In this document: positions 3,716 to 26,257 of the stretch, in pieces
How the letters are laid out: every line of letters begins with the position of its first letter
Numbering within the stretch: position 1 is the first letter of the stretch
Origin: Dictyostelium discoideum
Lineage: Eukaryota
Assembly: GCA_000004695.1 (NCBI GenBank)
Contig: CM000151.3
Coordinates: 3,392,001 to 3,456,000, forward strand
Direction of reading: 5' to 3'
Length of the DNA: 64,000 nt
The notes under the pieces: model-generated
Seen by the model: the letters and a program-made list of their open reading frames with translations, nothing else
Told to the model about the DNA's origin: nothing
Database searches by the model: none
Program-made: the position numbers and the translations under genes

Positions 3716-4864
3716 TAAAAAAAAATGATAATAGCGCATCATCATTAATTTTATTAATAAACTAAAATAATATTTAAAATTTTTTTTTTTTTTTTTACAA
3801 AAAATATATATACTTTTTTTTTTCTAATTTTTTGCTCGAAAATAACAATTAAATAAATATGACCAATGAAACGAAAAAAAAAAAAAATAAAAAAAAAAAA
3901 GAAAAAAAACTTATACAATTGGAAACTTTTTTATTTTTTTCTTTTTTTTTTCTCAAGTTTAATCATGATGTTAAAAAAAAAAAAAAAAAAAAACATACAC
4001 ACATATAAACAAACACATACTGATTATAAATACAAAAAATTAGAATGTCATTCTTATGACACGATTGATATGTTGTCGTTTGGTTTTGGTATGAAACGTC
4101 TAGAAAAAAAAAAAAAAATTAAAAAAAAGCAAAAAAAAGCAAAAAAAAGCAAAAAATAAAAATAAAATAAAAAGCAAAAAATTTAAAAAAAATAAATTAA
4201 AAAATAAAAATAAAAAATAAAAATAAAAAAAATAAATTAAAAATAATTAAAATAAGAACAAAAGACTTCAAGGTTCGCGAACCTTTTTAGATTTGTTGGG
4301 CGATTTTAAGTTAAAAATAGGTTTTTAAAAAAAAAAATAAAAAAAAATAAAAAAAAATTAAAAAAAAATTATAATAATAAATTGGCGTAGCAAATTGTTA
4401 CATATTATATTCTACAACCATTTTATTTAACAAAAACATTAGATATTTTTTAATTTCCTTTTTTAAATTGATTAGTATTCATCATTATTCTACACCCCTT
4501 CTTTTTTTAAAAATAAAAAATTAGATATTGATTATTTGCTTCTTATTTTTTAATGAAGCCTCCAGGTTTTTTTTTTATTTTAAAAATAATAAAATAATAT
4601 TTTTTTAATTATTTTTTGAGTTTAAGGATAATTTACCAAAAAAAAAAAAAAAAAATATAAATTGATTGAAAAATTATTTTTCTAATCATTTCAAAAAAAA
4701 ACAATAATTTAAAATTATAAATTTTATTTTGACTAAATAAAATATAAATAATATTTAAATAAATAAAATTTTAATTTATATTATTAAATTAAATTAAATT
4801 AAATTAAATTTTTTAAAAAAAAAAAAACCCGAACTAAAAAACAAATCATAAAGCTAAAAATAAA

Positions 4865-4904
<40 letters not shown>

Positions 4905-4908
<4 letters not shown>

Positions 4909-4946
4909 AAGAGGATAAAACTTTTCAATCAATTAGAATTTCCGAA

Positions 4947-5003
<57 letters not shown>

Positions 5004-5440
5004 TTAAATAATAATAATGATAATGATTATGATTATGATTCAATAAATAATATTGAAGAAAAATTTGAAAATGTTTCAAAAGAATTAGAAGGACAATCAA
5101 TCAAATTTAGAGAAATTGATGGTGGTAAAAATAATAATAACCATGATATTGAGTTGGGTGAAAGAAAACCAGAAAATGAAGAAGATTTTAAATTAAGACA
5201 ATATTTTGAGGATTCTCAAAGACAAAAAATGTTAATTAATCATAAACCAAAGAAAATGGGTGTTTCAATTAAAAATTTAACTGTTGTTGGTCAAGGTGCT
5301 GATAATTCTGTAATTGTTGATAATTCAACACCATTTAAAGCTTTAGGAAAATTATTAAATCCTTTTAATTAGTAAGTAAAATTTTTAAATTTTTTTTTTT
5401 TTTTTAAAATAAATTGAATTCAAGTATTAATATTTATTTA

Positions 5441-5478
<38 letters not shown>

Positions 5479-8400
5479 AAAAGTTTTAAAAAAGATAAAA
5501 ATAAAATTAATACATTTAATATATTAAATGATATTAATGCATTTATTGAAGATGGTAAAATGTTATTAGTATTAGGTAGACCAGGTGCAGGTTGTTCAAC
5601 TTTATTAAGAGTAATTGCAAATCAACGTGAATCATATATTTCAGTTGATGGTGATGTAACATATGGTAATATTGCAGCAAGTGATTGGTCAAAATATAGA
5701 GGTGAAACTCTTTATACAGGTGAGGAAGATATTCATCATCCAACTCTAACAGTTCGTGAAACATTGGATTTTACATTAAAATTAAAGACACCAGGTAATC
5801 GTTTACCAGAAGAAAGTAAAAGAAATTTTAGAACTAAAATCTATGAATTATTAGTTAGTATGTATGGTTTAGTGAATCAAGGTGATACAATGGTTGGTAA
5901 TGAATTTGTTAGAGGTTTATCAGGTGGTGAAAGAAAAAGAATAACAATTACAGAGGCTATGGTTTCAGGTTCATCCATTACATGTTGGGATTGTTCAACC
6001 AGAGGTTTGGATGCAGCATCAGCCTATGATTATGCAAAATCCTTAAGAATCATGTCTGATACATTAGATAAAACTACAATTGCATCATTTTATCAAGCAT
6101 CAGATTCAATTTATAATTTATTCGATAAAGTTATTGTTTTAGATAAAGGTCGTTGTATTTATTTTGGTCCAATTGGTTTGGCAAAACAATACTTTTTAGA
6201 TTTAGGATTCGATTGTGAACCACGTAAATCAACTCCAGATTTTTTAACTGGTATTACAAATCCACAAGAACGTATTGTTAAAGTTGGGTTTGAAGGTAGA
6301 GTACCAGAGACTTCTGTCGATTTAGAAGATGCTTGGAAGAAATCACAATTATTCCAATCAATGAAACATGCTCAATTAGAATATGAAAAACAAGTTGAAC
6401 AACAAAAACCATCTGTTGATTTTAAAGAACAAGTATTGAATGAAAAAAGTAGAACAACTTCTAAAAACTCTGAATATAGTTCTAGTTTTTATGCTCAAAC
6501 AATTGCTTTAACTCAAAGACAATTAAGTTTAACTTGGGGTGATAAATTTACATTAACTTCACGTTTTCTAACTATTCTTGTATTATCATTTATTTTTGGT
6601 GGTATTTATTTCCAACAACCATTAACAACGGATGGTTTATTTACAAGAGGTGGTGCTATTTTCACTTCTATCATTTTCAATTGTATTTTAACTCAAGGGG
6701 AGCTCCACGGTGCTCTATCAGGTCGAAGGATCTTACAAAAACATAAAAGCTATGCTCTATATCGTCCTTCAGCTTATTTTGTTTCACAAATTCTAATTGA
6801 TATTCCATTTATATTGGTTCAAGTATTTTTACATTCATTCATAGTTTATTTCATGTATGGCTTTGAATATCGTGCTGATAAATTCTTTATATTTTGTTTC
6901 ACATTGGTTGGTGTATCATTATCAAGTGCTTCATTATTTAGAGGTTTTGCAAATTTTACTCCATCTTTATTTACTGCACAAAATTTAATGAATTTTGTTT
7001 TCATTTTTGAAGTAAATTATTTTGGTTATTCTCAAACTCCAGATAAAATGCATTCTTGGTTTAAATGGACTTATTATAGTAAGTTTTTTTTTTTAACTTC
7101 ACTTTATTTAAAATATATTTTAACTTTTTTTTTTTTTTTTTTTTTAATAATAGTTAATCCATTAGCATATGCATTTAAAAGTTTAATGATTAATGAATTT
7201 AAAGGTTTAGATTTTTCATGTTTAGATAGTGCTATTCCATTTGATCATTTTAATAATTCAACATATTCTGATATGTCACATAGAATTTGTGCAGTACCAG
7301 GTTCAATTGAAGGTTCTTTGTCTGTTAAAGGTGAAAATTATTTATGGGATGCATTACAAATTAATAGTGATCATAGAGCATTAAATGTTGTAGTAATTTT
7401 CTTATTTTGGTTATTTTATATTGGATTGAATTTATTCGCCGTTGAATATTTCGATTGGACAAGTGGTGGTTATACTCATAAAGTATATAAAAGAGGTAAA
7501 GCTCCAAAATTAAATGATGTTGAAGAAGAAAGAAATCAAAATCAAATCGTAAAGAAAGCAACTGATAATATGAAAGATACTTTAAAGATGAGAGGTGGTC
7601 TTTTCTCTTGGAAATCAATTTCTTATACTGTACCAGTAGCTGGAACAAATAAATTACTATTGGATGATATTATGGGTTGGATTAAACCTGGTCAAATGAC
7701 TGCTTTGATGGGTTCATCAGGTGCTGGTAAAACAACCCTACTCGATGTATTGGCAAAAAGAAAAACCATGGGTACTGTAACTGGTGAATCATTATTAAAT
7801 GGTAAGCAATTGGAAATTGATTTTGAACGTATCACTGGTTATGTTGAACAAATGGATGTTCATAATCCAGGTTTAACAGTTAGAGAGGCATTAAGATTCT
7901 CTGCAAAACTTCGTCAAGAACCATGGGTACCATTAAAAGATAAATATCAATATGTTGAACATGTTTTAGAAATGATGGAAATGAAACATTTAGGTGATGC
8001 TTTAATTGGTACTTTGGAAACTGGTGTTGGTATTTCAGTTGAAGAAAGAAAAAGATTAACAATTGGTGTTGAATTAGTTGCAAAACCACAAATTCTCTTC
8101 CTTGATGAACCTACATCAGGTTTGGATGCTCAATCATCATATAATATTATTAAATTCATTCGTAAATTAGCCGATGCGGGTATGCCATTGGTTTGTACAA
8201 TTCATCAACCATCATCAGTATTATTTGAACATTTCGATCGTATTCTTTTATTGGCTAGAGGTGGTAAAACTGTTTATTTCGGTGATATTGGTGATAAATC
8301 AAAAACTTTAACATCATACTTTGAACGTCATGGTGTTCGTCCATGTACTGAAAGTGAAAATCCAGCAGAATATATTTTAGAAGCAACTGGTGCAGGTATT

Positions 8401-9522
8401 CATGGTAAGACCGATGTTAATTGGCCAGAAGCTTGGAAACAATCATCAGAGTATCAAAATGTTGTCAATGAATTGGATCTTTTAAGAACAAAAGAAGAAT
8501 TGGGAAAATATATTTTAGATAGTGATTTGCAAGTCGATGGTAAGCAAGCACCACCAAGAGAATTTGCAAATGGTTTCCTAACTCAATTCATTGAGGTTTA
8601 CAAACGTTTAAATATCATTTATTATCGTGACGTTTTCTATACAATGGGTAGTTTTGCTCAAAGTGCTGTATCTGGTTTAGTAATTGGTTTCACTTTTTAT
8701 GATTTAAAAAATAGTTCATCCGATCAACAACAAAGAATCTTTATGAGTTGGGAAGCAATGATTCTTGGTGTATTATTGATTTATTTGGTTTTACCAATGT
8801 TTTTCATTCAAAAAGAATATTTCAAACGTGATACTGCTAGTAAATATTATTCATGGCATGCATTCTCCTTGTCTATGATTGCCGTTGAAATTCCATATGT
8901 AGTTTTATCAAGTACTTTGTTTTTCATTGCAACCTATTGGACCTCTGGTATTGATTCAACCGCTAGTGCAAACTTTTACTATTGGTTAATGCATACAATG
9001 TTTAGTGTTTATATTGTTTCATTTGCTCAAGCTTTAGGTGCTGCATGTGTTAATATCGCCATTTCAATCGCTGCTTTACCAATTGTTCTCTTTTATCTCT
9101 TTTTACTTTGTGGAGTTCAAATTCCACCACCAGCAATGAGTTCATTCTATCAAGATTGGTTATACCATTTAAACCCTGCTAAATATTTCTTGGAAGGTTT
9201 AATCACTACTGTATTAAAACCAATTGAAGTTTTATGTACTGATGTAGATTTAATTAAATTCACTGCTCCAAGTGGTACCGATTGTCAAACCTATTCTGCA
9301 CCATTCCTCCAACAAGCTACTGGTTATGTTGTTCCATTAAGTAATACTACAAACGAATGTGGTTATTGTATTTACAGTTCAGGTTCTGATTATTTCGAAA
9401 CAAGTTTAGGTTGGGATTATGGTCATCGTTGGAGAAATTTTGGAATTATTGTTGCTTATTGGGGTAGTTCAATTTTAGCAGTATTATTCTTTGTTTATCT
9501 CACTCAAAAACCAAGACGTTAA
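4905..9522 (+). CDS. ABC transporter, G family, full-size PDR-type (NBD-TMD-NBD-TMD), 3 exons.
   Basis: Exons about 4905..5371, 5484..7078 and 7154..9522. Intron 1 runs GTAAGT at 5372 to AG at 5483, phase 2. Intron 2 runs GTAAGT at 7079 to AG at 7153, is 75 nt, and restores the PDR motif WTYYINPLAYAF. Walker [10 protein letters not shown] and [12 protein letters not shown] signatures LSGGERKR and VEERKR, and two 6-TM blocks. Confidence 0.88.
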
Positions 9523-9996
9523 ATAATAATAATAAAAATAATAATAAAAATAATAAATAATAATAAATAATAAATAATAATAAATAATAAATAAATAATA
9601 AATAATAAAAATTAAATTAATTAAATAAATATTAAATATTCTAAAAAAAAAAAAAAAAAAAAAAGAAAAGAAAAAAAAAAATTTCTTTTAATAAAATAAA
9701 ATAATATTAATTGAAAAGACTTTTTAATGGTATAACCAATCTTGATAAAATTAAATCATTGATGTTGCAACTTGCTAATTTACACTTTTTTTTTCTTTTC
9801 TAAAACACTTTTTTATGTTTTTTTAATAAAATACAAAGTTAAAAAATTAATTATTTAATTCAAAATTACAAAAAAAAATAATGGCTTGGAGTATCATTTA
9901 TTAATTCGATCTCAAATGAGCAATGTTTGATATTATTTTTAATATTTATATAACTTTAATCAGATTATCTTTTTTTTTCTTTTTTTTTTTAAATAC

Positions 9997-10034
<38 letters not shown>

Positions 10035-10430
10035 AATCTTAGATTTAAAAATAAAAACATTGGTTTTTTTTTTTTTTTTTTTTTTTTTTATTAAATTTTA
10101 TATTTTTATTATTATTTTATTGGTTTTTTATTTTTTTTATTTTTTTATTTTTTTTTATTTTTTTTTTGGTATCCCAACAATCCCAATTAGATATCATCAC
10201 TCAAAACCAGTGAAAATAAATTTGCCGAAATTTCTTATTTTCATTTTTTTTTTGATTTTTTATCATTTTTTTTTAATGAAAAAAATAATAAAAAATCAAA
10301 AAAAAAAATTAAAAATAAAATAAAAAAAAAAAAAAAAAAAACCTCTAAAGGAAACGAGGTTTTTTTTAAAAAATAATTCGGCAAAAACACATTAACATTT
10401 TTAAAAATAAAAAATATATAAATTTTAAGA

Positions 10431-11471
10431 ATGAATCAAAATAAAAATAATAATAATAAAAATCCAAAAATTAATTTATTAATTATTGGATGTGGTTGTA
10501 TTGGTTTATCAACAGGTATTATTGCATTAAAGAGTGGTAATTATAAGAGTGTATCAATTTGGGCCAAAGATTTACCACCAAATACAACCTCAAATAAAGC
10601 AGCAGCATTATGGTATCCATTTTTATGTAATCCACTAGATTTAGTTGGTAAATGGTCAGCAGAAACCATGCAATATTATAAAGATCATATTATTAATGAC
10701 CCAAAATCAGGTACAATCACAAAGAAAGTAAATGAAATTTTCAGACGTCCACATCCAGAAGATCCAGAATGGAAACCATACATTAAATCATTTAGAAGAG
10801 CTAGAAAAGATGAACTACCAGATGGATATGTAGATGGTTATGCAATTGATGACGGTTTCGTTATGGACACTGATATGTATATGGATTATTTAGTCGACCA
10901 ATTCAAAAGTTTAGGTGGAATCATTGAACAAAGACACCTCGTTGATATTCGTGAAGCTTTTGTTGACCATGATGTAGTTGTAAATTGCACCGGTTTAGGA
11001 TCACGTGAATTATTCAATGATCGTACAATTTATCCAGGTCGTGGTCAAATTATCGTTATTAAAAACTCAACCGATCGTTCAATCATGGATGAAGAAGATC
11101 ATATCGCATATGTAATTCCACGTTTAACAAATACAGTTTTAGGTGGTACAAATCAAGAACACGATTACAATACAAATCCAACTAAAAAAGATACTGAAGA
11201 AATCTTAAAACGTGTAGCCATGATTTCACCACGTTTTGCTAAAAATAGAATTGAAATTCAAGGTGTTAAAGTTGGTCTACGTCCTGCTAGACATGAAATT
11301 CGTTTAGAAAATGAATTCTTTGAAGGTGGTTCAAAATTAGTAGTTCATAACTATGGTCATGGTGGTAGTGGTTTCACTGTAAGTTGGGGTTGTGCTATTG
11401 AAGCAATTAAATTAGTTGATCAAGGTTTACCAAAATTATTACATTTTAATAAATTAATAAGTAAATTATAA
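10431..11471 (+). CDS. FAD-dependent D-amino-acid oxidase / D-aspartate oxidase family (DAO), intronless.
   Basis: N-terminal Rossmann fold LLIIGCGCIGLSTG, and C-terminal HNYGHGGSGFTVSWGCA matching the DAAO HNYGHGGxG motif. Confidence 0.8.
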   Translation: MNQNKNNNNKNPKINLLIIGCGCIGLSTGIIALKSGNYKSVSIWAKDLPPNTTSNKAAALWYPFLCNPLDLVGKWSAETMQYYKDHIINDPKSGTITKKVNEIFRRPHPEDPEWKPYIKSFRRARKDELPDGYVDGYAIDDGFVMDTDMYMDYLVDQFKSLGGIIEQRHLVDIREAFVDHDVVVNCTGLGSRELFNDRTIYPGRGQIIVIKNSTDRSIMDEEDHIAYVIPRLTNTVLGGTNQEHDYNTNPTKKDTEEILKRVAMISPRFAKNRIEIQGVKVGLRPARHEIRLENEFFEGGSKLVVHNYGHGGSGFTVSWGCAIEAIKLVDQGLPKLLHFNKLISKL

Positions 11472-11584
11472 AAAAAAAAAAAGTAATATTAAAAAAAAAG
11501 TAATAATAAAATAAAAAAAAAGAAAAGTTTTTTTAAATTTTAATTAATTTAAAAAACAAATATTTAAATGTTATTATTACAATA

Positions 11585-11595
11585 AATTATTATAA

Positions 11596-11645
<50 letters not shown>
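11585..11645. repeat. (ATT)n microsatellite.
   Basis: About 20 perfect ATT units, directly visible. Confidence 0.9.
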
Positions 11646-11647
<2 letters not shown>

Positions 11648-11659
11648 TTTATTTTAAAC

Positions 11660-11940
11660 TAATTCTTAAACGATACTCATTTTTTCAAAAATTTCATCTA
11701 TTTTTAACTTTTTAAATTTTTTAACATTTTCAAATAATTGAACGTTACTCATTTTTTAAAAAATTGTGAGGTAACCATGGGATTTTTTCTCTCATTTTTT
11801 CAAAAATTTCATTTATTTTTAACTTTCTTAATTTTTTCTCATTTTCAAATAATTAAACGTTACTCATTTTTTAAAAGTTTGGGTGGTAACGTTGGGATTT
11901 TTTCTCTTATTTTTTCAAGTTTTATTTTAACAAATTCTTA
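11660..11940. repeat. Tandem repeat of a 115-120 bp unit, about 2.3 copies, of unknown function.
   Basis: Two near-identical units carrying tcattttttcaaaaatttcat.tatttttaacttt...caaataatt.aacgttactcattttttaaaa...ggtaac(ca/gt)tgggattttttctc. Sits between the DAAO gene and the next gene. No ORF with coding character. Confidence 0.6.
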
Positions 11941-12066
11941 AAAAAAAAAAAAAACAATATAAATACCAATTATGTATTGAAAAAAAAAAAAATCATTTCA
12001 AAAACAAATAAACTAAAAACAATAAATTTTAAAACAAATTCTTAAAAAAAAAAAAAAAAAAAAAAA

Positions 12067-12843
12067 ATGACAGCTGTTGACAATACTAATACTGGTTCAA
12101 TTCAATTTAATTCAAATTTTGTTTGTCCAAAGAATAGAAAAGAAATTGGTGAACTTATTGATCAATTTAAAAACTCATCTGATGGTGTTCCAAAAACCAG
12201 AGAAGAAATTAAGGAATATATTTCATTAATTAAGAAACAATATCGTGGAGATAAAAGAAAATTAAGACTTGAAAATAAAAGTCAATCTGGTAGTTCCAAA
12301 ACCACTGAACAAAGTGCTACAAATATAAATCCAATCCAAGTTCCTTCAGTTACTACAACCACCTCAACAAATGATAGTGATGAACAAAGTGTTACAACTA
12401 CAAATACTACAAATTCAAATCAAACCCAAAACCAAGTTCCTTCAGTTACCTCCACTACTACAACCACTTCAACAAATGACAGTGACGAGCAATGTGTCAC
12501 AACTACAAATACCACAAACTCAAGTCAAACTCAAATCCAAGCTCCTTCAGTTGCCTCCACCACTACTACAACTACTTCAACAAATAATGGTGATGATGTT
12601 AAAAAATCAATTAAAGAATTAAGAGAATTAATTAGAAAATTAAAAAAGTCATCTGAAACCCCAAAATCAAAAAAAGAAATTCGTTCAATTCAAAATCAAG
12701 AAAAATCACAAACATTAAATTATAATGAGTTTAAAAACACCAAAAGTGAAAATGTTCAAGTTGGACAAAATACTAAAAAACCATACTGTCATCATTATCG
12801 TAGAAATCGTTTAAATGATTGTAATACAAATTTAATTTCTTAA
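12067..12843 (+). CDS. Hypothetical Ser/Thr-rich protein with three roughly 40-aa tandem repeats (VPSVTTTTSTNDSDEQSVTTTNTTNS...).
   Basis: ORF with Dictyostelium codon usage and internal repeats at DNA and protein level. The stop at 12841-12843 is followed by 57 in-frame stop-free codons (see findings). Confidence 0.5.
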   Translation: MTAVDNTNTGSIQFNSNFVCPKNRKEIGELIDQFKNSSDGVPKTREEIKEYISLIKKQYRGDKRKLRLENKSQSGSSKTTEQSATNINPIQVPSVTTTTSTNDSDEQSVTTTNTTNSNQTQNQVPSVTSTTTTTSTNDSDEQCVTTTNTTNSSQTQIQAPSVASTTTTTTSTNNGDDVKKSIKELRELIRKLKKSSETPKSKKEIRSIQNQEKSQTLNYNEFKNTKSENVQVGQNTKKPYCHHYRRNRLNDCNTNLIS

Positions 12844-13129
12844 GTTGAAACCAATGTCAAACCAAAACTCCAAAATGAATCTGATCATAGTCAAGCTAGT
12901 TCACAAAAACTTGAAAAATTAAAATTTAAGAAAGAAATGTTATTAAGAAAAATTTCAATTGTTGAAAATAAAATTGAAACACTCAATAAATCTCAATCAA
13001 CCACAGTATCCCTCTAAACTATACAAAATCACCTCCTTTTATAATAAAATAAAATAAAATAAAAGTTATTAACTGTTTCTATTAAAATTATATTTTATTA
13101 TATTTTTTGTTGTACTATTAATTATTATT

Positions 13130-14719
13130 TTATAAATTTAAATTAATAAAATCAAGTTTATCTTGAAGTATTGCATTTGTAATTTCTCTAACATCAATAT
13201 CAGTTCTTCTATCATTTTCAAGTATTGGAATAATTTTTATAATTGAAGAATAAAGTTTTTGGACTTTATTTGGTAATTTAAAATTTTCAATAGATTTCAT
13301 TCTAAGACTAATGGCTTGAAAAGCTATGATTAAAGTCATTGAAACAATATCACATAGTTTAATTAACATTGATGCAGCACCATTTGCAGAGTGTAATCCT
13401 AAACTAACAATATCTTGATTAAACTGTTCAGTTGTTAAACTATGTATACAAGCAGGTGCGGCTTCTTGTCTTAACCAAACTACTAATGAAGTTTGAGAAA
13501 TTTGCATTCCTTTATAACCTTGATAAATTCCAGGATTTGGACTTAGGGAATTTGGTAAACCTTTAGAGAATTCACTATGCATCATTAAAGCAACTAATGA
13601 ATGTAAATGATTGGCAACCAAAGATATATCCAATTTAATACCATCCATTATTCTAGCAATATGATTACCCATAAAATTACCACCACTTAATACATCACCA
13701 TAATAAGGATCAATTAATGGATTATCATTAACTGATAAAATTTCTCTTTTTATTACAATTTTTGCATTACTTATATTTTCAGATATTATACCCAAAATTT
13801 GTGGAGCACAACGTAATGAATAAACTTCTTGTACTGATTTATCCAATTTCTGAACATTTTCAGATTGATTGAATGTAATATTACTGCTTTTGGTATTATT
13901 ATCGCTAGTATTAAAATATTTATTTAAAATTTGTGCAATTAAAATTTGACCTGGATGATTTTTTAAATTATGAATTCTCATATCGTAATGATCTTTTGAA
14001 GCTAATAAACCTTCAACTGCCAATGCGATACTACCAATTGCAGCTTTAAAAATAGTTTCAAATTTATTAATTGAAATACAACTAACTGAACTCATTACTC
14101 TTGTACCATTTACTAATGCCAAACCTTCTTTTGATTTTAAAACTAGTGGTTCAATAGATGTAATTTTTAAGGCATCTGAAGCATTCATTAATTTTTCATT
14201 ATACTTCACCATACCTTTTCCACATAGCACATTAGCAATATAACTCAAAGGTACTAAATCACCACTTGCCCCTACTGATCCATGCATTGGTACTTGTGGA
14301 ATTATACCTTTATTTAAATGTTTAGCCAATGTTTGAATTACCATTGGTCTAACACCTGACCAACCTCTTGAAAGTGCAATTATAATAATAAATTGTATAC
14401 CTCTAACATATTGATCATTAAAAAAATCACCAGTGCCACAAGTTAAAAAATCCAATAAATTACTTTGATGATAATCTAATTTATCAAATGGAATTATTAA
14501 ATCACCATTACCACCAAAACCAGTGTTTATACCATAAATTGCAACATTTTCTTTTAATTTATTTTCTAATTGATCTCTTCCTTTTTGTAAAAATTCTAAT
14601 AATTCATTAGTGAAAATAATATTTTTTTCACCTTTACTAATACTAATAATATCATTAATTTCTAAATTTTTATTTTCACCATCAATTAAAAAATTATCTT
14701 TATGGTTTGTTTCTATCAT
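13130..14719 (-). CDS. MIO-dependent aromatic amino-acid ammonia-lyase (HAL/PAL/TAL family), intronless, 529 aa.
   Basis: YGINTGFG, the GSVGASGDLVPLS Ala-Ser-Gly MIO triad, and downstream ALVNGT. Length and architecture match the bacterial-type HAL/PAL fold. The selectivity-switch position reads LLDFLTCGTG, i.e. Phe-Leu where true HALs have Ser-His. Confidence 0.85.
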   Translation of the reverse strand: MIETNHKDNFLIDGENKNLEINDIISISKGEKNIIFTNELLEFLQKGRDQLENKLKENVAIYGINTGFGGNGDLIIPFDKLDYHQSNLLDFLTCGTGDFFNDQYVRGIQFIIIIALSRGWSGVRPMVIQTLAKHLNKGIIPQVPMHGSVGASGDLVPLSYIANVLCGKGMVKYNEKLMNASDALKITSIEPLVLKSKEGLALVNGTRVMSSVSCISINKFETIFKAAIGSIALAVEGLLASKDHYDMRIHNLKNHPGQILIAQILNKYFNTSDNNTKSSNITFNQSENVQKLDKSVQEVYSLRCAPQILGIISENISNAKIVIKREILSVNDNPLIDPYYGDVLSGGNFMGNHIARIMDGIKLDISLVANHLHSLVALMMHSEFSKGLPNSLSPNPGIYQGYKGMQISQTSLVVWLRQEAAPACIHSLTTEQFNQDIVSLGLHSANGAASMLIKLCDIVSMTLIIAFQAISLRMKSIENFKLPNKVQKLYSSIIKIIPILENDRRTDIDVREITNAILQDKLDFINLNL

Positions 14720-14865
14720 TTTTTTAAAATTTTTTGGATTTTAAATTTAATAGTAATTATATATTCTTTTTTTTTTTTTTTTTTTTTAAAATTTAATATT
14801 AAATTTTTATTTATAAAAAAGTGTTTAAAAAATAAAAAATAAAAAAAATATATAAAGATAATTTA

Positions 14866-14899
14866 ACATGTGTTAATTTAATTAAATTAACACATGTAA
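14866..14899. promoter_or_regulatory. Near-perfect palindrome (arms about 19 bp) in the divergent intergenic region between the lyase and DyP genes.
   Basis: atttaacatgtgttaattt / aaattaacacatgtaaat are reverse complements with one mismatch. It lies about 150 bp upstream of the lyase ATG and about 400 bp upstream of the DyP ATG. Confidence 0.4.
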
Positions 14900-14904
14900 A
14901 TACG

Positions 14905-14955
<51 letters not shown>

Positions 14956-15006
14956 AATATTAATCTTATATTATTTCTAACCCAATATTATTTATTTTTA
15001 TATTTT

Positions 15007-15043
<37 letters not shown>

Positions 15044-15141
15044 ATTTAATTTTTTTATTTTTTTTATTCCACCACCCAACAGAAAACACAAAACTATTAT
15101 TTTTAGTTTTTTTTATTTTTATTTTTATTATTTTTCAAACA

Positions 15142-15181
<40 letters not shown>

Positions 15182-15289
15182 TTAATATTATTATAATTTT
15201 ATAATTATTTTTTAAAAATTAATAGATTAATTAAAAGATCTTTCACTGGTACTGTTAATATTAATAACAGTAAATTTTTAAATTTTAAA

Positions 15290-16210
15290 ATGGCACAGTC
15301 AACAGTGTTACCAATGCATTGTTTATATGGCATATTTTTAGAAGGAAATTTAAAAATTCAAAAAAATGACCAAGAGGGATTAAAGAAATTTAAAGATAAT
15401 ATAAAGAAATTTACATTAGAATTGGATGAAATCGATAAGATATCACCACAATCTAGAATTGGAGGTGCAATTTGTTTTAGTTCTGATATTTGGGACACTG
15501 TAACAAAGAAAATATCAAAACCAAAAGAATTGAAATCCGTAAACACTTTAAGTTCATACATGCCAGGCACATCTCAAAGAGACATCCTCATTCATATTAT
15601 CTCTGATAGAATGGATACGTGCTTTAAACTAGCACAAGATACAATGAGAAATTTCGGTGAAGATCAATTAGATATCAAGCAAGAGATTCACGGATTTCGT
15701 AGAGTTGAAGAAAGAGATTTGACCGACTTCATCGACGGTACTGAAAATCCTGACGGTGACGAACTGCGTACACAATATGGTCTCGTTGCAGCCGGCCAGC
15801 CAAATGAATTTGGCAGTTACGTTTTCACTCAACGGTATGTTCACAACTTAAAGAAATGGTATCCTGAACCATTATCAGTTCAGCAAGATACAGTTGGAAG
15901 AACTAAAAAAGATTCAATTGAAATACCAAGAGATAAACGTCCAATTACTTCACATGTTTCACGTACTGATCTAAGTGAAAATGGTAAAGATTTGAAAATA
16001 GTTAGGCAATCTCTCCCCTATGGTCAAATTACTGGTGAAAAAGGTCTGATGTTTATAGCATACGCTTGTAGTTTACATAATATTGAAAAACAACTTCAAA
16101 GTATGTTTGGTCAATTAGATGGTAAACATGACCTACTCTTAAAATATACAACACCAGTAACTGGTAGTTTTTATTTTGCACCATCAAAAAAAGAATTATT
16201 AGAATTGTAA
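15290..16210 (+). CDS. Dye-decolorizing (DyP-type) heme peroxidase, intronless, 306 aa.
   Basis: Distal DyP motif FIDGTENP (GXXDG) and overall DyP fold residues. The 306-aa length fits a bacterial-type class B DyP like the one described in D. discoideum. Confidence 0.85.
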   Translation: MAQSTVLPMHCLYGIFLEGNLKIQKNDQEGLKKFKDNIKKFTLELDEIDKISPQSRIGGAICFSSDIWDTVTKKISKPKELKSVNTLSSYMPGTSQRDILIHIISDRMDTCFKLAQDTMRNFGEDQLDIKQEIHGFRRVEERDLTDFIDGTENPDGDELRTQYGLVAAGQPNEFGSYVFTQRYVHNLKKWYPEPLSVQQDTVGRTKKDSIEIPRDKRPITSHVSRTDLSENGKDLKIVRQSLPYGQITGEKGLMFIAYACSLHNIEKQLQSMFGQLDGKHDLLLKYTTPVTGSFYFAPSKKELLEL

Positions 16211-16280: not shown

Positions 16281-17106
16281 TTATGGGACAATTACAAAAC
16301 CACTAAATGGAATACAAAGTATATTCTTTGGATTACAACTATGACCACCCCATGCCTTATTGAAAGAACCATCAGCTAAATTATAAGATTGAATAATATC
16401 TGTTTTAGCTTTATGGGATGATTCTGAATCAGATGTTGATTCTGATCCAAAATAAAATTCATCATCATCACCACCATCATTTCCATTTCTTTGAATATTT
16501 TTAAAACTACCATGTCCACCAAATGATAATGGTGATGAAAGTCCAGTACCTGATGTACCTGATGTACCTGATGAACCTGATGCTGAGCCTGATGCTGAAC
16601 CAGTTGAAAATCCACTTGATTCTGATGATGATTCTGATGATGACTCGGATGATTCTGATGATGATGATTCTGATGATGATGGTGGATTTTCTTTTTTAGA
16701 AGCATATGGTACTTCAACATAAATATGATTTTTAGTTAATGCTAATGAACCAGGTAAACCACTAACTTGACCATTAAAAATACCAATTAATTTAATTGAT
16801 CTAATTAATTCACCAGATTTACTAATTTGAATGATCATATCACCTTGATAGGATGGTACTGAAACGTAGATACTATCTTGAGAATCTTGTGAAATGGTTA
16901 TACCATTATAAGCTATTCTATCATTCTCATTGATTGGATTAAATTGTTTTAATAATTTACCAGAATTATCATAAACATAAATTACATTTATATCTGTAAT
17001 CCAAATATTACCATCACTATCACCTGCAATACCAGTTGTTGTATTAAATTCTGAATTTGAAATTATAAAATCTAAGTTTCCATCCTTTTTTTTTTTAAAA
17101 AAAAAA

Positions 17107-17150
<44 letters not shown>

Positions 17151-17867
17151 TTATTTTTACTAATTTAATTTTATTTAATAAACTTACGGTTGTATAAACA
17201 AATACTGCTGGTTGATAAGAATAATCACAATTACTATTTAAACTTGCAATGTAAACTTTATTATTTAGTTGGTCAACATTTAATCTTGAAAGTCCACAAC
17301 CAACTTTACCTTTAGTGTTGGTTTTTAAATTATTCCAAACTCCTTTAACAACTCCATTTTCATTAGCTTGATAAACACCTTGATGTGCATCTAATAATAA
17401 TAATGTTGATCCTAAAAATCCCATATCAACTGGTACACATCTTTCTGATTCATTCTATGTATATATATTTTTTTTTTTTTTTTTTTGTGATTTTATATGT
17501 TATATCAGAGGATGAATATATTAATAAAATTATTAATTTTCTAAACACTTTTCTTTTCTTTTTTTTTCTTTTTTTTTTTTCTTTTTTTGTTTATAAATAT
17601 ATTTACAGTTGATAAAAATGTTGTATAATTATAAATTGAATCACCACTTGTTGTAAATTCATAAAATTGGTTTGGATTTAAAGAAGTTGGATCTGTTAAT
17701 AAAATATTACCAGATTGAAAAGTTGAGGTTGATTCAGTACTACTGCCAGTACTACTATCGTCTTTATGATGTTTTCCAACAATTGAAATCAAATTTTTAT
17801 TATTGACAGAAACACTAAAAACACAACCAACAAAAATTAAAACAATAATAAAAGTGATTGATTTCAT
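16281..17867 (-). CDS. Secreted protein with a signal peptide, NHL/beta-propeller-like repeats and a Ser-rich (SSSESS)n region; 3 exons.
   Basis: Minus-strand exons 17867..17607, 17454..17188 and 17084..16281. Donors are GTAAAT and GTAAGT, and both acceptors follow long T/A runs, with phase 0 throughout. Signal peptide MKSITFIIVLIFVGCVFSVSV. Repeated segments of type YVYDNSGKLLKQF and IYVSVPSYQGDMIIQISKSGELIRSI. Confidence 0.6.
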
Positions 17868-18836: not shown

Positions 18837-21800
18837 ATGGATGAAGAAATATTTGATAATCCAATTCAAAAATTAAATTATAATATAAGAACTGAAGAAT
18901 CAGGTTCATTATTAAAATATTTACAATCACAAAAATCAAATTTCACAGATTCTAAAAAATTCATTTCATTTAAACAAAAAGGAAATGATTCAGTTGGAAT
19001 TCGTAAAGAAATCACTCAAAAAAAGTCATTCCCATTAGATAATGGTTTCATTGGTACTGTAGCAGATCCATTCATTGCAATTGCATTTCAAATATCTGAT
19101 AGATTTAATATTGATGAATATTTAGCTTGCAGAATTTTATATTCAGTAGTTGATCATGTATGTAATATTATTAAAAAATAAAAAAAAATAATATTTATAA
19201 ATTTACTAATTTAGTTTTTATATTATTAAAAAAAAAAAAAAAAAAAAAGAGTACCACAAGAGATGAAAAAGAATTAATTGAATTATCAGAAAAATTTATT
19301 TACCAAAATAGATCATGCTATTTACAATTTTTAAGAGAAATATTACATGTAAATTTTATAATAAAAAAAAAAAAAAAAAAAAAAATTAATTAATTAATTA
19401 ATTACTTTTACTAATTAGTTTTTTTTATTTTTTATTTTATCAATATATATTGTAGACATTACAAAGTAGAGATTCTGTTAATGATATTAATCATTCAAAG
19501 ATGAAACATGATATATTACAATCATTTATTGGTGAATTAATTTCAGAGCAAACTAATGATAAGAATATAGTAACAATTTTAATTAAAACATTAGAAGAGA
19601 AAGTTAAAGATATGAATGGTACTGTAAATCCATTAGAATGTTGTTTTAGAGTAAAAGAATGTATTCAAATTGTTGAATGTTTATTTTTAATTTCAATTCA
19701 AGTAAGTATTAATTTATTTTTTTTTTTTAAAAAAAAAAAGATATTAATTTTAAAATTTAAAATTTAAATATTATTAGTTTACAATTAAAGAAGATATTAT
19801 TAAATTATATATCAGAGTTTTAAATCAAGTAATTGAGAAAGAAAAGAGGGAAGATTCAATTTTAAAGAAATCATTATTTGAAATTATGTTTACATTATAT
19901 TTCACAATTTTTGCAGTTTTTGATAATGTTAAAAATAGTCAAGTATTTAATGCAATTGAAAAAAGATATACTTTTAATGAAATTAGTTCAACTGATTCAA
20001 TTGAAAATGAAATTAAACAAATTGATAACCAACATCCAATTAAATCTTCATTATATGCAATTTTTAATATAATTTTAGTATGTAATTTTTTTTTTTTTTT
20101 AAAAAAAATATTTTAAGTTATTATTAATTAACAATTTTTTTTTTTCTTTTTTTTAATAGATTGCAAAAGAAAATAATAATAGTAATAGTAATAGTAATAG
20201 TAATAGTAATAGTAATAGTAATAGTAATAATAATAATAATCGTATTACCCCTGAAAATGATTCATATAAATTCCTTTTACAAGCAGTTCAAACACAAGAA
20301 TATCAATTGTCACCTTTAAATATCCTATTTGGTTCATTTATAAATATTTTATCTTGTAGATTTTTATCAAATTTATCAAGTCACCCAACTAGTATGTATT
20401 TTTATTTTTTTATTTTTTATTTTTTTATTTTTTTATTTTCTAAATTTAAAAAGAAAAAGACATTTTATATTAATATTTTTTATTTTAAAAAAAAATAAAA
20501 TAAGATATGGAATTTATAAATTCATTTAATTTAGTAATGTCAAATATATTTGATAATCATAATAATAGTTCAATTGAATTTTGGAGAATTTGTGAACAAA
20601 TTAATTATTTTCAAAATCTTTGGTTTAGAATTCATGATGATTTAATCATTTCATCATTTAAATTAATGGGGTCATTAGCTAGATGTAATACAAATGAAGT
20701 TTTCAATTTCTTTGCTCAAGGTAGTGCGCAATTTACATGGGCAAAATTATTCCAAAATTTTTCATCCTATGCTCATGCTTTAAATAGTATTGAATTTAGT
20801 CAATCAATTCAATCGAATCAAATGAATTCATCAACGACTACAACTCAACAAATTTCATCAACTCCACAACAACACCAACAACATCAGCAGCAACAACAAC
20901 AACAACAAGGTTATAATAACCAACAAATACCAAATACACCATATCAACAATTCCAACCAACAATGCAATACCAAGGACAACAATCGTCAATGCAACAAAG
21001 TGTAGGACAACAACAACAACCTCAACAACAACCTCAACAACAAAATACACCAAATACACCAAATTCAACAACAAGTTCAAATACAGCAAATACAACATCA
21101 CCTGTAAAGATTACACAATTATTATTATCAGAGAAAGATAGTGATGCACTTTCAAGTATTTTCCAATTGATTTCAAGATTGGTTGAATCTTCAATGGCAG
21201 TTGGAAATGTATTTTTAAAGATTGGACCATTGATTTCATTAGCATTTCAATTTGCAGTATCACAAGTTGATTCAAAATTAAAATCTAGTGCATTATCAGT
21301 GATTACATCATATTCTCAATATCCAATTTATGTAGCTGATATTTGGAGATTAATAAATGAAACCAATCTATTCAATAGTGGTCTTAGTGCAATTGGTGGG
21401 CTAAATGAATTATCTTTCACTCAACAATCATTAGAGTTGTTATTACAATTGATTCAACAATCATCATTCCTATTCGATAAGAGTAATCATTATCAAGAAT
21501 CTTTGAAACTCAAATCCTATTTAGATAGTTGTATGGATTTATTCAATTTATTAAATATAAAATCATTTAATACTTTGGATGAAAAATGGAAATTTGCTTT
21601 AACTTTGATGAAAATATTTGAATTCTCAATCATTCAATTCAATCAATCAATTCAAAATTTTCAAATTGATAAACAACATCCATGTTATCAATTATATATT
21701 GAATTAAATCGTTCTTCTTTATCTAGTAATTTGTATCAACAACAACAACAACAGCAAAATAAATATCAACAGCAACAACAACAACAACAACAAAGTAAAA

Positions 21801-23089
21801 AAACAACATTAGAGAATATTATAAAGATAATTGATTATTCAAATGATCAATCAATATTAATTCAACAACAAATTCAACAACAACAGCAACAACAACAACA
21901 AGGTTATAATCAAGATTCATCAAGAGTAATTTTAAATTTAGTATTCCAACAATTACAACAACAAGATAATGATGATTTTAATTTATTAGTATTGAAATGT
22001 TTAGATTTGTTATTGTTAATCTCTGATAATACAGTTTACGATATTGAAAATGCAAAGAGTTTAGTTGTTAATTTATCAAATATGGATTATAGCAGACCAA
22101 TTGTGTCAATTGCCAAATTGATTGACCATGAATTACCAGCTATTTCATTACGTGCAATTAGATTAATCTATAGTTTCGAATGTTATACTCATCAAATTTC
22201 AACGGTTTTCTTGGATAGTGATCCAAATTTAATACTTTCCAAGTTTATAAAGATGATGGAATTCAATGAATCCAATTTCGAGGATTTCTCTGGTACAAAC
22301 TATGATCAAACCATTTCATTCATTAGATATGCAAGTAATTCCGTACAATGGACAATAGCTCAATTGATTATGTTATGTCTTTCAAATATTAGTAGTGGAA
22401 GATATACATTGGCTCATTTCCTATTGGGTTGTTCATCAAATTTAGATCTTTCAAAGGATTTCATACCAAATAGTAAATCATGTTTAACTTTGATCATAAA
22501 GAATGTTATGAATTCACAATTCGTAGAGAGATATCCACATTTGGTCGATTGTTATCATGAAATCATTTGGAAAATGTCAAGTGATCCAATCACTTGGAAA
22601 CCAATGATCAAATATATTCAAGAGGAATTTCCAAACTATTATCATGATAGTTTATTAATATTAAGAAATGCAATTACAATCAATGGTTCATCAGAGAGAA
22701 GAACTGAAGCATTGATCTCTTCAATGTCATGGGTTTTCAAGACTTGTTCCATTTCAATTCAAAATTCTTATTCAATCGAAATGAAACAATTCTTAACTCG
22801 TTTAATCTTTCCATCATTGATGAACTTAAATCAACCTTCAATGAATGGTGGTATTGGTGGTCTTAATGGTACAATTAATAATGGTTTAATCATGGGTATT
22901 TCACCAATTAATATCTTATCACTCTATAATACAATTGAATTTCAATTACCTGAAATTAATAGACCAAGAATATTTTCAATGTATCCAAATTTAATTGAAT
23001 ATTTTACAACAAATATTAATATTAATAATTTAAATTCAAATAATAATAATAATAATAATAATAACAATAATAATAATAACAATAATAAC

Positions 23090-23159
<70 letters not shown>

Positions 23160-26100
23160 TTACTAATGGTGGTACAAGTCAATTATTAGATATTATTAAA
23201 ATTAGAGAGGTTTTAAAGAATGATTTTAATAGATTTTCAAATGAATTTGAAATTGAAAGAGAATTAGAAGAATGTTGTTTAATTAATTCAAGTATTCAAT
23301 TATATAATAGTAAATTAAAAGCATTAGATGGTTGGAAATCATTTATTAATATTTCTTTAGCTCAAAATACAATTGAAATTGATACATTGGATGAATCATT
23401 ATTATTATCATTATTACAAAGAATAGTTATTGATTTCTCAAATGAACGTAATCCAATTGAATCAACATTATCAATTGGTTATACAATTTTAACCATTTTA
23501 TTCACATTGAAATTGAAAAAAGATAGTTATCAATTATTTATCAATTCTTCACTCACTACCAATAGCACAGATTCAAATGTAATTGAACAAAAGATGAAAT
23601 CAATCTTTGAAGGATTATTACAAACTGTTTTAAAATCACCACATCAAGCAATAAGAGGTATTAGTTATACTTGTTTAATTCAATATTTGGATTTATCAGC
23701 TACAACTCCAACAACTCCATCATTATCACCTTTATCAACCTCAATTAATAATGTCGTTGAAATGAATAATAAAAGTAAAAATAAAAATAATCAAGATAAA
23801 GAACAAGGATATGGTAATTTAAATATTGGTTTAATCATTAGTAAAATTGAAGATAAATTTATTAGAATCTTATCGAGTGATTGTAATTCATTTAGTAGAG
23901 GTTGGAGAATTACCGCTATAAGTTGTATGCAAAGTATTTTATCAATTGACAATCTTTGTGGACATAGATCATTAATGTTTTTACAAAACAAAGGATTCAT
24001 CATCAATATGATCAATGATACTTGTTCAAAATATTTATCAGATAATTGGGAAAACATTGATCCAAAGGATTTACATGTCTATAAATCACAAATGTCCTTA
24101 CTCTTAAAGATTTCTCAACAAATGGATGGTGTTCACCTCTTAATGAATAATAATGTAATTGGTAGTTTTGTTAAATCACCATTTTTAAATTATATTCCAA
24201 CCGATAAAATCTTTGGTAAATTTATAGAGATACTTTTACCAATTTTACAATTATTCGCTTCATTATGTTGTTATTGTAATAATACTTCAAAGAATAATGG
24301 TAATATTAATAATAATAACAATGTTGGTGGTACAGTTTTAATTGGTAGTGATAGAAATGAAATTTATCAAGAATTATTTGATTTCCTTTCAAATCATTCA
24401 GATTTATTCATCATTATTTTATCAGATCAAAGTAGTTTTAGTCATCCAACTTTATCAAGCTTAAAAGTTTTAAAATTAACTTGTTTCTTATTTTCAAAAG
24501 TTTCAAGTTTATTCTTTAAAAAATCAACTACCACCTCTTCTTCAACTTCAACTACAAGTAGCCATAATAGAACACAATTTAATAGATTCCATTATTGTTT
24601 AATTAATTTATTAGTTAAATATTCAGTAAATTCAAAACAAATCATTGAATTGGTTAAACCTGAAAATATTGATGAAGAATTATTAACCGAGAAAATTGAT
24701 TTTAGTTATTTACCAAAGAGTTCAATTGAAAATCAATTTAAGAATATTCCTGATGATATTAATATTGGTGGTGTTAATATTGGTTTAACAAGTAAAAACT
24801 CAAATAATAATAACAATAATAATAATAATAATAATGGTAGCATCAATGGTAAGAAATCAAAGAGAAAGAATCAATTCCAAATTTTAATTAAAGAAACTAT
24901 CACTTCAATCATTCATGATTTATTATTATATTGCAGAAAAGTTTCAATTGTTCAAGATTCAAATTTTGGTTTCGTTTGTTTTAATTCAAATTTAAATATT
25001 TATCAACAATTCCAATCATTTTCAAGTTTAAGATCAACTAATCGTAATAATAGTAATAATAATAATATTAATAATAACAATAATAATAATAGCAACAATA
25101 ATTATAATAATAATAGTATGAATAGTGATATGGATAATGATGATGATAATATAATTAATAATAATAGTTATAAATTTAATAATAAAAATAATAATAATAA
25201 TAATGATAATAATAATCAAAATAAGAATAGTATATTTGGTGGCTTTGGAGTGAATAATAGTATTATCAATGGAAATAATAATAATAATAATGGTAATAAT
25301 AATAATAATAATGGAAATAATGGAGTTAATATTTTACCATCAATTGATTTAGCTATTAATATATTGGTTGATAATATTCTTCAATATTCATTCTATAAGG
25401 TGGATTTAAGTCAATGTTTCAAATTATTACAATCCTATGATCAATTAACCAACTATCAATATCAAGAGATCTTACAAACTGGTGAAGATTATCCTGCATT
25501 TGGCCCAACTCAAAGAAATCATATGGTTGAAAATATTTTGAAAGAGAAAATCATTGATATTGAAACTCAAATCTCTATCATCCATGAAAATATTGAAATC
25601 CTATTGTTATTGATTGTTTCTCATTCTTTCTACTTTTGTAATTCTTTATATTTGTTATTCCAAAATTCAAATAATAATTTCTATAGTAGTGCAATTGGAG
25701 GCACCATAAGTCCAACTTTAGCTAGTAGTGCTTATTATCCAACAACACAACAACAACAACAACAACAACAACAAGGTGGTTCAAATTTAAAGATTACAGA
25801 TTTAAATGCTTCAACAACTACCTCAAACATTAAAAAGAATAATGAATCAGCATTTTTATCTTCAAAAACAAATCAAAATAGTGGTGGTATGTTATCATCA
25901 GTTTTCTCTTACTTTAAAGGTCAACAAAATAATACACCATCAGCTCAGGTATCACAAATTCCAATAAATTCAACACCTTATTCAACAAATTATGCAACTC
26001 CACATCAACATCAACAACTTTTACAACAACAACAACAAAGACAACAACAAATTCAACAACAAATTAATCAAACACCATCAAATGAATTATCTCCACAAGA

Positions 26101-26257
26101 GATTGAAGTATTCCTTAAACGTTTAAAACAATCCATTTTTGAACGTGAAGTTAATCAATTAGGTGGTAAATTATCTGACGTCATTTTAAACCAAATCGAT
26201 AAAAAATCAACTCTCATTGATTTATTATTGAAAAAATTACAAGATTTAACAAAATAA
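18837..26257 (+). CDS. Large protein of about 2300 aa, a Nup205/Nup192-family nucleoporin candidate with poly-Q/poly-N insertions; 6 exons.
   Basis: Exons 18837..19157, 19250..19348, 19456..19701, 19778..20077, 20160..20391 and 20505..26257. All donors are GTATGT/GTAAAT/GTAAGT, acceptors are (T)n-AG, and the reading frame is maintained. N-terminal IAIAFQISDRFNIDEYLACRILYSVVDH resembles the human NUP205 N-terminus EAFILSDLFDIGELAAVELLLAGEHQQ. Gene structure confidence is higher than identity confidence. Confidence 0.55.

Follow-up and report, generated by a model that had tools for sequence, protein, structure and literature searches.

Three enzymes of the social amoeba Dictyostelium discoideum are encoded close together in the stretch of chromosome 2 analysed here (64 kb, 21.7% G+C, in the following called the window): a D-amino-acid oxidase (DAO), a phenylalanine ammonia-lyase (PAL, DdPAL) and a dye-decolorizing peroxidase (DyP, named DyPA). 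All three genes are already known. Each has been cloned and assayed, crystal structures of DyPA are available, and a bacterial origin has been published for PAL and DyP. Ito et al. (PMC5928759) showed that D. discoideum DAO is a D-amino-acid oxidase with D-Ala as the best substrate and little activity on D-Asp or D-Glu. It generates H2O2, its expression peaks in the unicellular feeding phase, and it was amplified from a Dictyostelium expressed sequence tag (EST) clone. Recombinant DdPAL was shown to be a phenylalanine ammonia-lyase forming cinnamate from L-Phe, and horizontal transfer of PAL has been proposed earlier (Emiliani 2009, PMC2657906; Weise 2017, PMC5651878, the latter including the assays). 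The gene dypA carries no introns, and DyPA was cloned and localised in Dictyostelium cells, where it is cytoplasmic by fluorescence microscopy (PMC8230527). According to published work it oxidises phenolic and lignin-model substrates. The DyP gene DDB_G0273083 also appears, together with the D. purpureum orthologue 35644, in the candidate list for horizontal gene transfer (Eichinger 2005; Sucgang 2011, PMC3188802, Table 2), whereas PAL and DAO are not found in the entries of that table up to TerD. In the literature on these genes we did not find DAO, PAL and DyP treated as one cluster.

Our comparison points to three unrelated single-exon genes that came to lie side by side secondarily and late, with separate histories and independent function, a reading to which we assign a probability of roughly 0.8. 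DAO is located at 10431-11471 (+ strand, 346 aa), the lyase at 13130-14719 (- strand, 529 aa) and DyP at 15290-16210 (+ strand, 306 aa). Gene models were read from an annotated D. discoideum assembly, which matches the window by 99.8% over 21 kb. There the span of each gene equals 3 x (aa + 1), i.e. the gene spans are the coding lengths, hence all three are single-exon. The positions and the lack of introns reported in a preliminary description of this DNA match both the list of open reading frames (ORFs) and the annotated assembly exactly. It had gone on to suggest that the clustering may reflect a transferred island or co-regulated catabolic genes, which together would form an amino-acid or aromatic deamination and oxidation toolkit. 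In our reading, one native gene and two earlier, separate imports would instead have been joined by rearrangement among the recent ancestors of D. discoideum.

Among the species compared, the cluster is seen only in D. discoideum and D. firmibasis. In D. firmibasis the order is the same (an ABCG-type transporter, DAO, a middle gene, PAL, DyP, a homologue of the adjacent 443-aa gene orf443, and Nup192), with protein identities to D. discoideum of 83-92%. The synteny check suggested in the preliminary description thereby confirms a shared order for this species, but not beyond it. In D. purpureum, DAO is located on GL870988, ~4 kb from Nup192 and adjoining NDK, while GL871112 carries DyP along with the orf443 homologue, and no PAL or DAO is seen there within 10 kb. 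Scaffolds GL871425 and GL870950 carry the two PAL copies of D. purpureum, with unrelated genes around them, and the same holds for the surroundings of PAL in T. lacteum and of DyP in P. violaceum. In the window, Nup192 maps to 19-25 kb and NDK to 36.1 kb, and because DAO is linked to both of them in D. purpureum also, it appears to be native to this chromosomal neighbourhood. Given the dispersal in D. purpureum and the unrelated neighbours in T. lacteum and P. violaceum, the cluster was most probably assembled recently by rearrangement.

The phyletic distributions of the three genes differ. DAO has orthologues in every dictyostelid group as well as in Physarum and Ceratiomyxa. The dictyostelid PAL clade comprises the D. 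discoideum group, D. firmibasis, D. dimigraforme, two D. purpureum copies and T. lacteum, and the dictyostelid DyP clade consists of the D. discoideum group, two D. purpureum copies and P. violaceum. The nearest bacterial relatives likewise differ gene by gene: StlA-type proteins of Enterobacterales for PAL, the Neisseria/YfeX type for DyP and Microgenomates-type proteins for DAO. Moreover, none of the bacterial genomes examined shows linkage of the genes. In Yersinia, no DyP or DAO is present within 10 kb of PAL, and in Neisseria sp. no PAL or DAO within 6 kb on each side of DyP. Two of the three genes were found together in none of Yersinia, Neisseria sp., the Microgenomates DAO locus and a 1.9-Mb DAO-bearing metagenomic contig. 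The preliminary description had also called for a comparison of codon usage, and here DAO, PAL and DyP cannot be told from other genes of the window. Their G+C at third codon positions (GC3, 0.10-0.22) and their correlation in relative synonymous codon usage (RSCU, r 0.90-0.96) fall in the range of those genes, and comparing G+C, GC3 and RSCU with the other ORFs of the window revealed no compositional trace of transfer for any of the three. Such host-like composition is not decisive alone, because old transfers would show the same.

The lyase is 100% identical to DDB_G0273081, a "hal-like protein" (DDB_G0273081/0273787), and its sequence is that of DdPAL in the supplement of Weise 2017. It matches Pfam Lyase_aromatic (PF00221) over its full length (471 bits, residues 19-479). 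The tripeptide Ala151-Ser152-Gly153 that forms the methylidene-imidazolone (MIO) group is encoded at 14261-14269 (- strand), within GSVGASGDL, a motif that all dictyostelid and bacterial homologues in our alignment share unchanged. At the selectivity positions it carries Phe91-Leu92 (14444-14449, - strand), which lie in NLLDFLTCGTG and correspond in the alignment to the FL pair of StlA from Photorhabdus and Xenorhabdus. According to Weise 2017 (PMC5651878), FL at these positions defines PALs, whereas YH or FH are linked to enzymes resembling tyrosine ammonia-lyase. The T. lacteum orthologue has S-L there. We also considered a histidine ammonia-lyase, as the database name implies. This assignment is excluded by the FL residues, by the published assays and by the NCBIfam cut-offs for HutH equivalogs, none of which the lyase reaches (365.5 vs 539 for TIGR01225, 386.8 vs 524 for NF006871). 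With these sub-cut-off scores, "hal-like" is not to be taken as histidine ammonia-lyase.

Dictyostelid PALs are most closely related to bacterial StlA-type enzymes, namely those of Bradyrhizobium, Photorhabdus, Xenorhabdus, Yersinia and Pectobacterium (49-52% identity). In our neighbour-joining (NJ) tree the dictyostelid PALs form a clade (bootstrap 100) that falls into a StlA-type clade of otherwise only bacterial members (bootstrap 100), adjoining the Photorhabdus, Xenorhabdus and Yersinia proteins. The nesting expected in the preliminary description is thus recovered for the lyase, as had already been published. PAL would have been gained by horizontal transfer before the T. lacteum and group 4 dictyostelid lineages split. 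Inspection of its C-terminus revealed no type-1 peroxisomal targeting signal (PTS1). In the cell DdPAL would convert L-Phe to trans-cinnamate and ammonia, and the cinnamate probably feeds a CoA ligase resembling 4-coumarate-CoA ligase (4CL), followed by polyketide or phenylpropanoid-like secondary metabolism.

PAL and DyP are present in two copies each in D. purpureum (P0009, P0010, P0125, P0127), and in one copy each in D. discoideum, barring the chromosome 2 duplication of AX3/AX4. In the NJ trees the two D. purpureum PALs join the clade of the D. discoideum group together, while the two DyPs join successively. The second D. purpureum PAL (10001-11563 in our extract L090 of scaffold GL870950) is part of an apparent phenylpropanoid-type cluster at 4350-13147. 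It includes a Methyltransf_3 O-methyltransferase (4350-5244), an arylamine N-acetyltransferase (6547-7119), a divergent 4CL-like AMP-binding ligase (7690-9488), whose best match in the Protein Data Bank (PDB) is poplar 4-coumarate-CoA ligase with 277 bits, and an NmrA-like reductase (12227-13147). These neighbours suggest what the amoebal PAL feeds into, and the cluster offers a starting point for testing what PAL does in social amoebae. A different setting is seen in Yersinia frederiksenii, where a UbiD-family decarboxylase gene starts 30 nt downstream of the StlA-type PAL (extract L095, 10001-13098), with a TetR regulator and a transporter of the major facilitator superfamily beyond the pair. 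The two genes may provide a route from phenylalanine via cinnamate to a decarboxylated product. Such a route would differ from the stilbene pathway of Photorhabdus.

The peroxidase is DyPA (DDB_G0273083/0273789), with 306/306 residues identical to PDB 8OHY and 7O9J; further structures are 7O9L and 7ODZ. Both Pfam domains are found (Dyp_perox_N 68.7 bits, Dyp_perox_C 172.4 bits), and the NCBIfam model TIGR01413 scores 223.5 against a cut-off of 100.5. DyPA belongs to class B/P (YfeX-like) and, with 50 bits, stays far below the cut-off (428 bits) that applies to the model for EfeB, a substrate of twin-arginine translocation (Tat). It possesses neither a Tat/Sec signal nor an N-terminal extension, its residue 2 aligning to residues 4-7 of YfeX and KpDyP. 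Among the best non-self PDB matches are 6FKS (KpDyP) and 5GT2 (YfeX), and identity with E. coli YfeX is 46%. By position, DyPA has Asp149, Arg239 and His222, which we take to be its catalytic residues. The haem-pocket motif GXXDG reads DFIDG (15725-15739, + strand), i.e. Asp149 is kept and the first Gly is replaced by Asp, and DyPA is active despite this variant (PMC8230527).

Dictyostelid DyPs form a clade (bootstrap 96) that is sister to a protein of Neisseria sp. (97) inside the gammaproteobacterial YfeX group, and the genomic context of the Neisseria sp. gene is genuinely bacterial. For DyP, too, the bacterial nesting predicted in the preliminary description is borne out and has been published before. 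As a YfeX-type class B/P haem peroxidase, DyPA would have been gained separately, before the split of P. violaceum and group 4, and its substrates in the cytoplasm would be H2O2 and phenolic or dye-like compounds.

The oxidase, OXDA_DICDI, is one copy of a duplicated pair including DDB_G0273783, and its exact sequence falls in a cluster named D-amino-acid oxidase / D-aspartate oxidase, D. discoideum AX4. The Pfam DAO domain (PF01266) scores 129 bits, and the glycines G20, G22 and G25 of the N-terminal GxGxxG motif binding flavin adenine dinucleotide (FAD) are invariant in the alignment. The protein ends in ...KLISKL, the terminal Ser-Lys-Leu (11460-11468, + strand) being a PTS1, so that DAO is predicted to be peroxisomal. 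PTS1-like ends are found on 10/14 DAOs of the amoebozoan clade versus 0/107 full-length records of the bacterial clade.

DAOs of Dictyostelia, Ceratiomyxa and Physarum form a clade with a support of 93 (84 with Dayhoff-6 recoding). Its sister is a group of 108 proteins of ~320 aa (support 90, recoded 76; group proteins P0249-P0360), the named members of which come from Microgenomates, Gottesmanbacteria, a metagenome-assembled genome (MAG) of the Patescibacteria group, one Verrucomicrobiae MAG and one unclassified bacterial MAG. These Microgenomates/Patescibacteria-type proteins are the nearest named non-amoebozoan relatives of DAO, share ~52% identity with it and carry no PTS1. Their genes stand in genuine bacterial contexts, one with purK, purB and mreC and another with an ABC-2 transporter operon; a Microgenomates-type DAO-like gene is located at 3995-4957 of extract L005. 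As Microgenomates DNA has 34% GC, compositional attraction was checked by the recoding, and the grouping was kept (support 76). Distances in the tree are 1.33-1.41 to the human enzymes DAO and D-aspartate oxidase (DDO) as compared to 0.66-0.70 to the closest Microgenomates-type sequences. The scores agree. Scores of 182-293 bits to DAO are reached by at least 150 clusters (50% identity level), most of them prokaryote-like, versus 139-157 bits for human DAO/DDO. Human DDO (157 bits) is the best solved structure, and it is outscored by all 150 cluster representatives among the matches listed. By distances and scores, D. discoideum DAO is not a member of the animal/fungal lineage of D-amino-acid and D-aspartate oxidases.

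From the first tree and the 52% identity, DAO could be regarded as a bacterial import. This candidate explanation is weakened by PTS1-bearing DAOs beside the clade. PTS1-like ends occur on ten of the 150 listed representatives. Two of these can be named, Balamuthia mandrillaris and Pellita catalonica, both Amoebozoa; their placement immediately outside the Eumycetozoa-plus-bacteria clade is weakly supported (32-34). Because of this position, the Microgenomates-type clade may itself nest among amoebozoan sequences. A published survey lists no DAO transfers into Amoebozoa; its authors called the method insensitive for this group. The simplest reading of the sequences is a DAO lineage native to Amoebozoa, and the tree further suggests an old inter-domain transfer, in either direction, linking the amoebozoan DAOs and the Microgenomates-type clade. 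The preliminary description had counted DAO among the bacterial-type enzymes. With an Amoebozoa-wide occurrence and a PTS1, it corresponds rather to the vertical amoebozoan lineage that the same description had named as evidence against its proposal. Its idea of horizontal transfer accordingly holds for PAL and DyP and not for DAO. DAO, a FAD-dependent, D-Ala-preferring enzyme that is Amoebozoa-wide, would be native and directed to the peroxisome by -SKL, and it likely oxidises D-alanine from digested bacterial cell walls to pyruvate, ammonia and H2O2.

The lack of introns is a shared feature of the three genes in all species examined (13/13 orthologues). Around the orthologous loci of five dictyostelids, 12/43 other complete annotated genes (28%) are intronless as well. 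With this baseline, the probability that three given genes are all intron-free is ~0.02. As the D. discoideum genome is given with ~13,500 genes in Table 1 of PMC3188802, hundreds of intron-free three-gene runs are expected. Hence, a run of three is not strongly beyond chance, and the observation made on the sequence, although correct, is not an unusual or a new one. The intron-rich surroundings emphasised earlier are confirmed insofar as the ABCG gene, the gene at 16281-17867 and Nup192 have introns, but intron-free genes are common locally.

PAL and DyP are arranged head-to-head around an AT-rich intergenic region of 570 bp (14720-15289). Aligning it with the 1,285-bp equivalent of D. firmibasis in search of conserved blocks yielded only low-complexity AT matches. 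The region contains a perfect 32-nt palindrome, ACATGTGTTAATTTAATTAAATTAACACATGT, at 14866-14897; none is expected from 100 shuffles of the window, and no matching sequence aligned in the D. firmibasis equivalent region. Co-regulation of PAL and DyP is possible but unsupported.

That the three genes entered an ancestral dictyostelid together on one bacterial piece of DNA, as their clustering and their intron-free structure might imply, is very improbable. Such a joint arrival could account for the absence of introns in all 13 orthologues, the bacterial origin of PAL and DyP and the bacterial affiliation of the nearest named relatives of DAO. It leaves unexplained why the species distributions differ, why DAO is Amoebozoa-wide with a PTS1, why each gene points to another bacterial relative in genomes where the three are unlinked, and why D. 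purpureum, T. lacteum and P. violaceum show no clustering. In addition, a non-bacterial Ser/Thr-rich gene (see below) lies inside the block, and the composition is without trace of transfer. The island of the preliminary description thus gives way to three separate histories. An assembly artefact or bacterial contamination, suggested by the bacterial affinity of two proteins and nothing more, has a negligible probability: typical Dictyostelium genes flank the block on one contig, in independent assemblies and in several strains and species, codon usage and GC3 are Dictyostelium-like, DyPA was cloned and localised in Dictyostelium cells, and DAO was amplified from an EST clone. Several points weigh against a late juxtaposition of separately acquired genes. 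The D. purpureum assembly is a draft in which the genes may be linked over more than 10-60 kb, and absence from other dictyostelids means absence from the best 120 matches, not from genome searches. Since PAL as well as DyP has Enterobacterales among its nearest relatives, the two may stem from one donor group, albeit not from one locus. The trees are bootstrapped NJ trees with simple distance correction rather than maximum likelihood trees, several deep nodes of the DAO tree are weak (supports 32-42), and the head-to-head order of PAL and DyP, kept in two species, could permit co-regulation.

The same arrangement bears on a second question, namely whether genes that arrived separately were joined by selection for co-expression. 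A secondarily assembled functional cluster of PAL and DyP, perhaps with DAO, appears unlikely to us, albeit its logic is possible: cinnamate-derived phenolics would undergo peroxidative coupling with H2O2 from an oxidase. The divergent transcription of PAL and DyP from a shared 570-bp region, retained in D. firmibasis, speaks for it, as do the phenolic and lignin-model substrates of DyPA and the H2O2 formed by DAO. But the intergenic region itself is not conserved between the two species in length or in sequence blocks, and because D. firmibasis is so close to D. discoideum, the kept gene order says little on selection. Moreover, DAO is predicted to be peroxisomal as opposed to the cytoplasmic DyPA, and the partners of PAL in D. 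purpureum resemble a 4CL-like ligase, a reductase and an O-methyltransferase, not DyP. A narrower version, which we rate as decidedly improbable, holds that the independent imports PAL and DyPA were brought head-to-head on a shared bidirectional promoter for one pathway, in which PAL (with the 4CL-like ligase and polyketide synthases) may make phenolics that DyPA couples oxidatively. If true, two genes imported separately from bacteria would have been combined into a phenylpropanoid/peroxidase module of the amoeba. The toolkit envisaged in the preliminary description is unlikely, because the substrates (D-Ala, L-Phe, and H2O2 plus phenolics) and the cell compartments differ. DAO, PAL and DyPA probably do not share a compartment, and functional coupling between them seems to be lacking.

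Taken together, neither adjacency nor intron-free structure is evidence of co-transfer: the cluster is young, and each gene has a history of its own. While our analysis mostly adds a negative result, it provides two leads, namely the transfer between the DAO and Microgenomates-type lineages and the PAL cluster of D. purpureum.

As dypA is found twice on chromosome 2 of AX3 and AX4 (DDB_G0273083 and DDB_G0273789, PMC8230527), the window lies inside the duplicated region of this chromosome. Upstream of the block, the ABCG-type transporter is located at 4905-9522 (+ strand) with ~78 nt of intron, and its annotated product of 1,295 aa matches the ABC_tran, ABC2_membrane and PDR_CDR families. Since a short intron is in frame and stop-free, the gene seems to be one 1,320-codon ORF (5560-9522), in which the intron translates as a Phe/Ile-rich stretch. 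The true N-terminus is provided by upstream exons, as the ORF at 4905-5372 carries ABC_trans_N (Pfam). Downstream, the three-exon gene orf443 (16281-17867, - strand) contains two GT..AG introns that can be read directly in the sequence. It is annotated with 443 aa and ~250 nt of intron, and its hydrophobic N-terminus resembles a signal peptide. The Nup192-family nucleoporin follows at 18837-26257 (+ strand, Pfam Nup192); introns of its D. firmibasis orthologue total ~520 nt.

A fourth ORF within the block, absent from the preliminary description, encodes a Ser/Thr-rich protein of 258 aa with unassigned function (12067-12843, + strand, uninterrupted). A Pfam search of this ORF matched no family. 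The corresponding place in D. firmibasis shows 74% conservation of the N-terminal 78 aa, and the 258-aa protein contains an internal near-repeat, "VPSVT..TTTTSTNDSDEQ.VTTTNTTNS.QTQ". In the window (12067-13035) the ORF ends with a TAA stop, which is followed by an in-frame extension of 57 codons. The annotation of another strain joins both parts via a 24-nt "intron" across the stop codon. We rejected an intron in this gene, as the 24-nt gap merely skips the in-frame stop and is too short for credibility. Stop-codon read-through or mis-annotation are among the possibilities for the gene model.

Set against the closest described systems, each of the three proteins has a different counterpart. 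DAO resembles the animal and fungal peroxisomal D-amino-acid/D-aspartate oxidases (human DAO and DDO) in the Pfam DAO fold and the GxGxxG FAD motif, and like these it combines a C-terminal PTS1 with D-amino-acid oxidase activity; its identity with human DAO/DDO is only ~32-33% (PMC5928759). DdPAL compares to StlA of Photorhabdus luminescens. Both have ~530 aa, the ASG triad and the Phe-Leu pair, they are ~50% identical over the full length, and they fall into the same clade. In contrast to StlA, DdPAL belongs to a eukaryotic genome, and its gene follows the codon usage of the host. StlA provides cinnamate for stilbene antibiotic synthesis, and neither this stilbene context nor the UbiD context of Yersinia exists around D. 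discoideum PAL. DyPA, finally, is 45-50% identical end to end to YfeX of E. coli and KpDyP of Klebsiella and shares their two-domain Dyp_perox architecture, while it differs from both in the Asp that replaces the first Gly of GXXDG and in its eukaryotic host.

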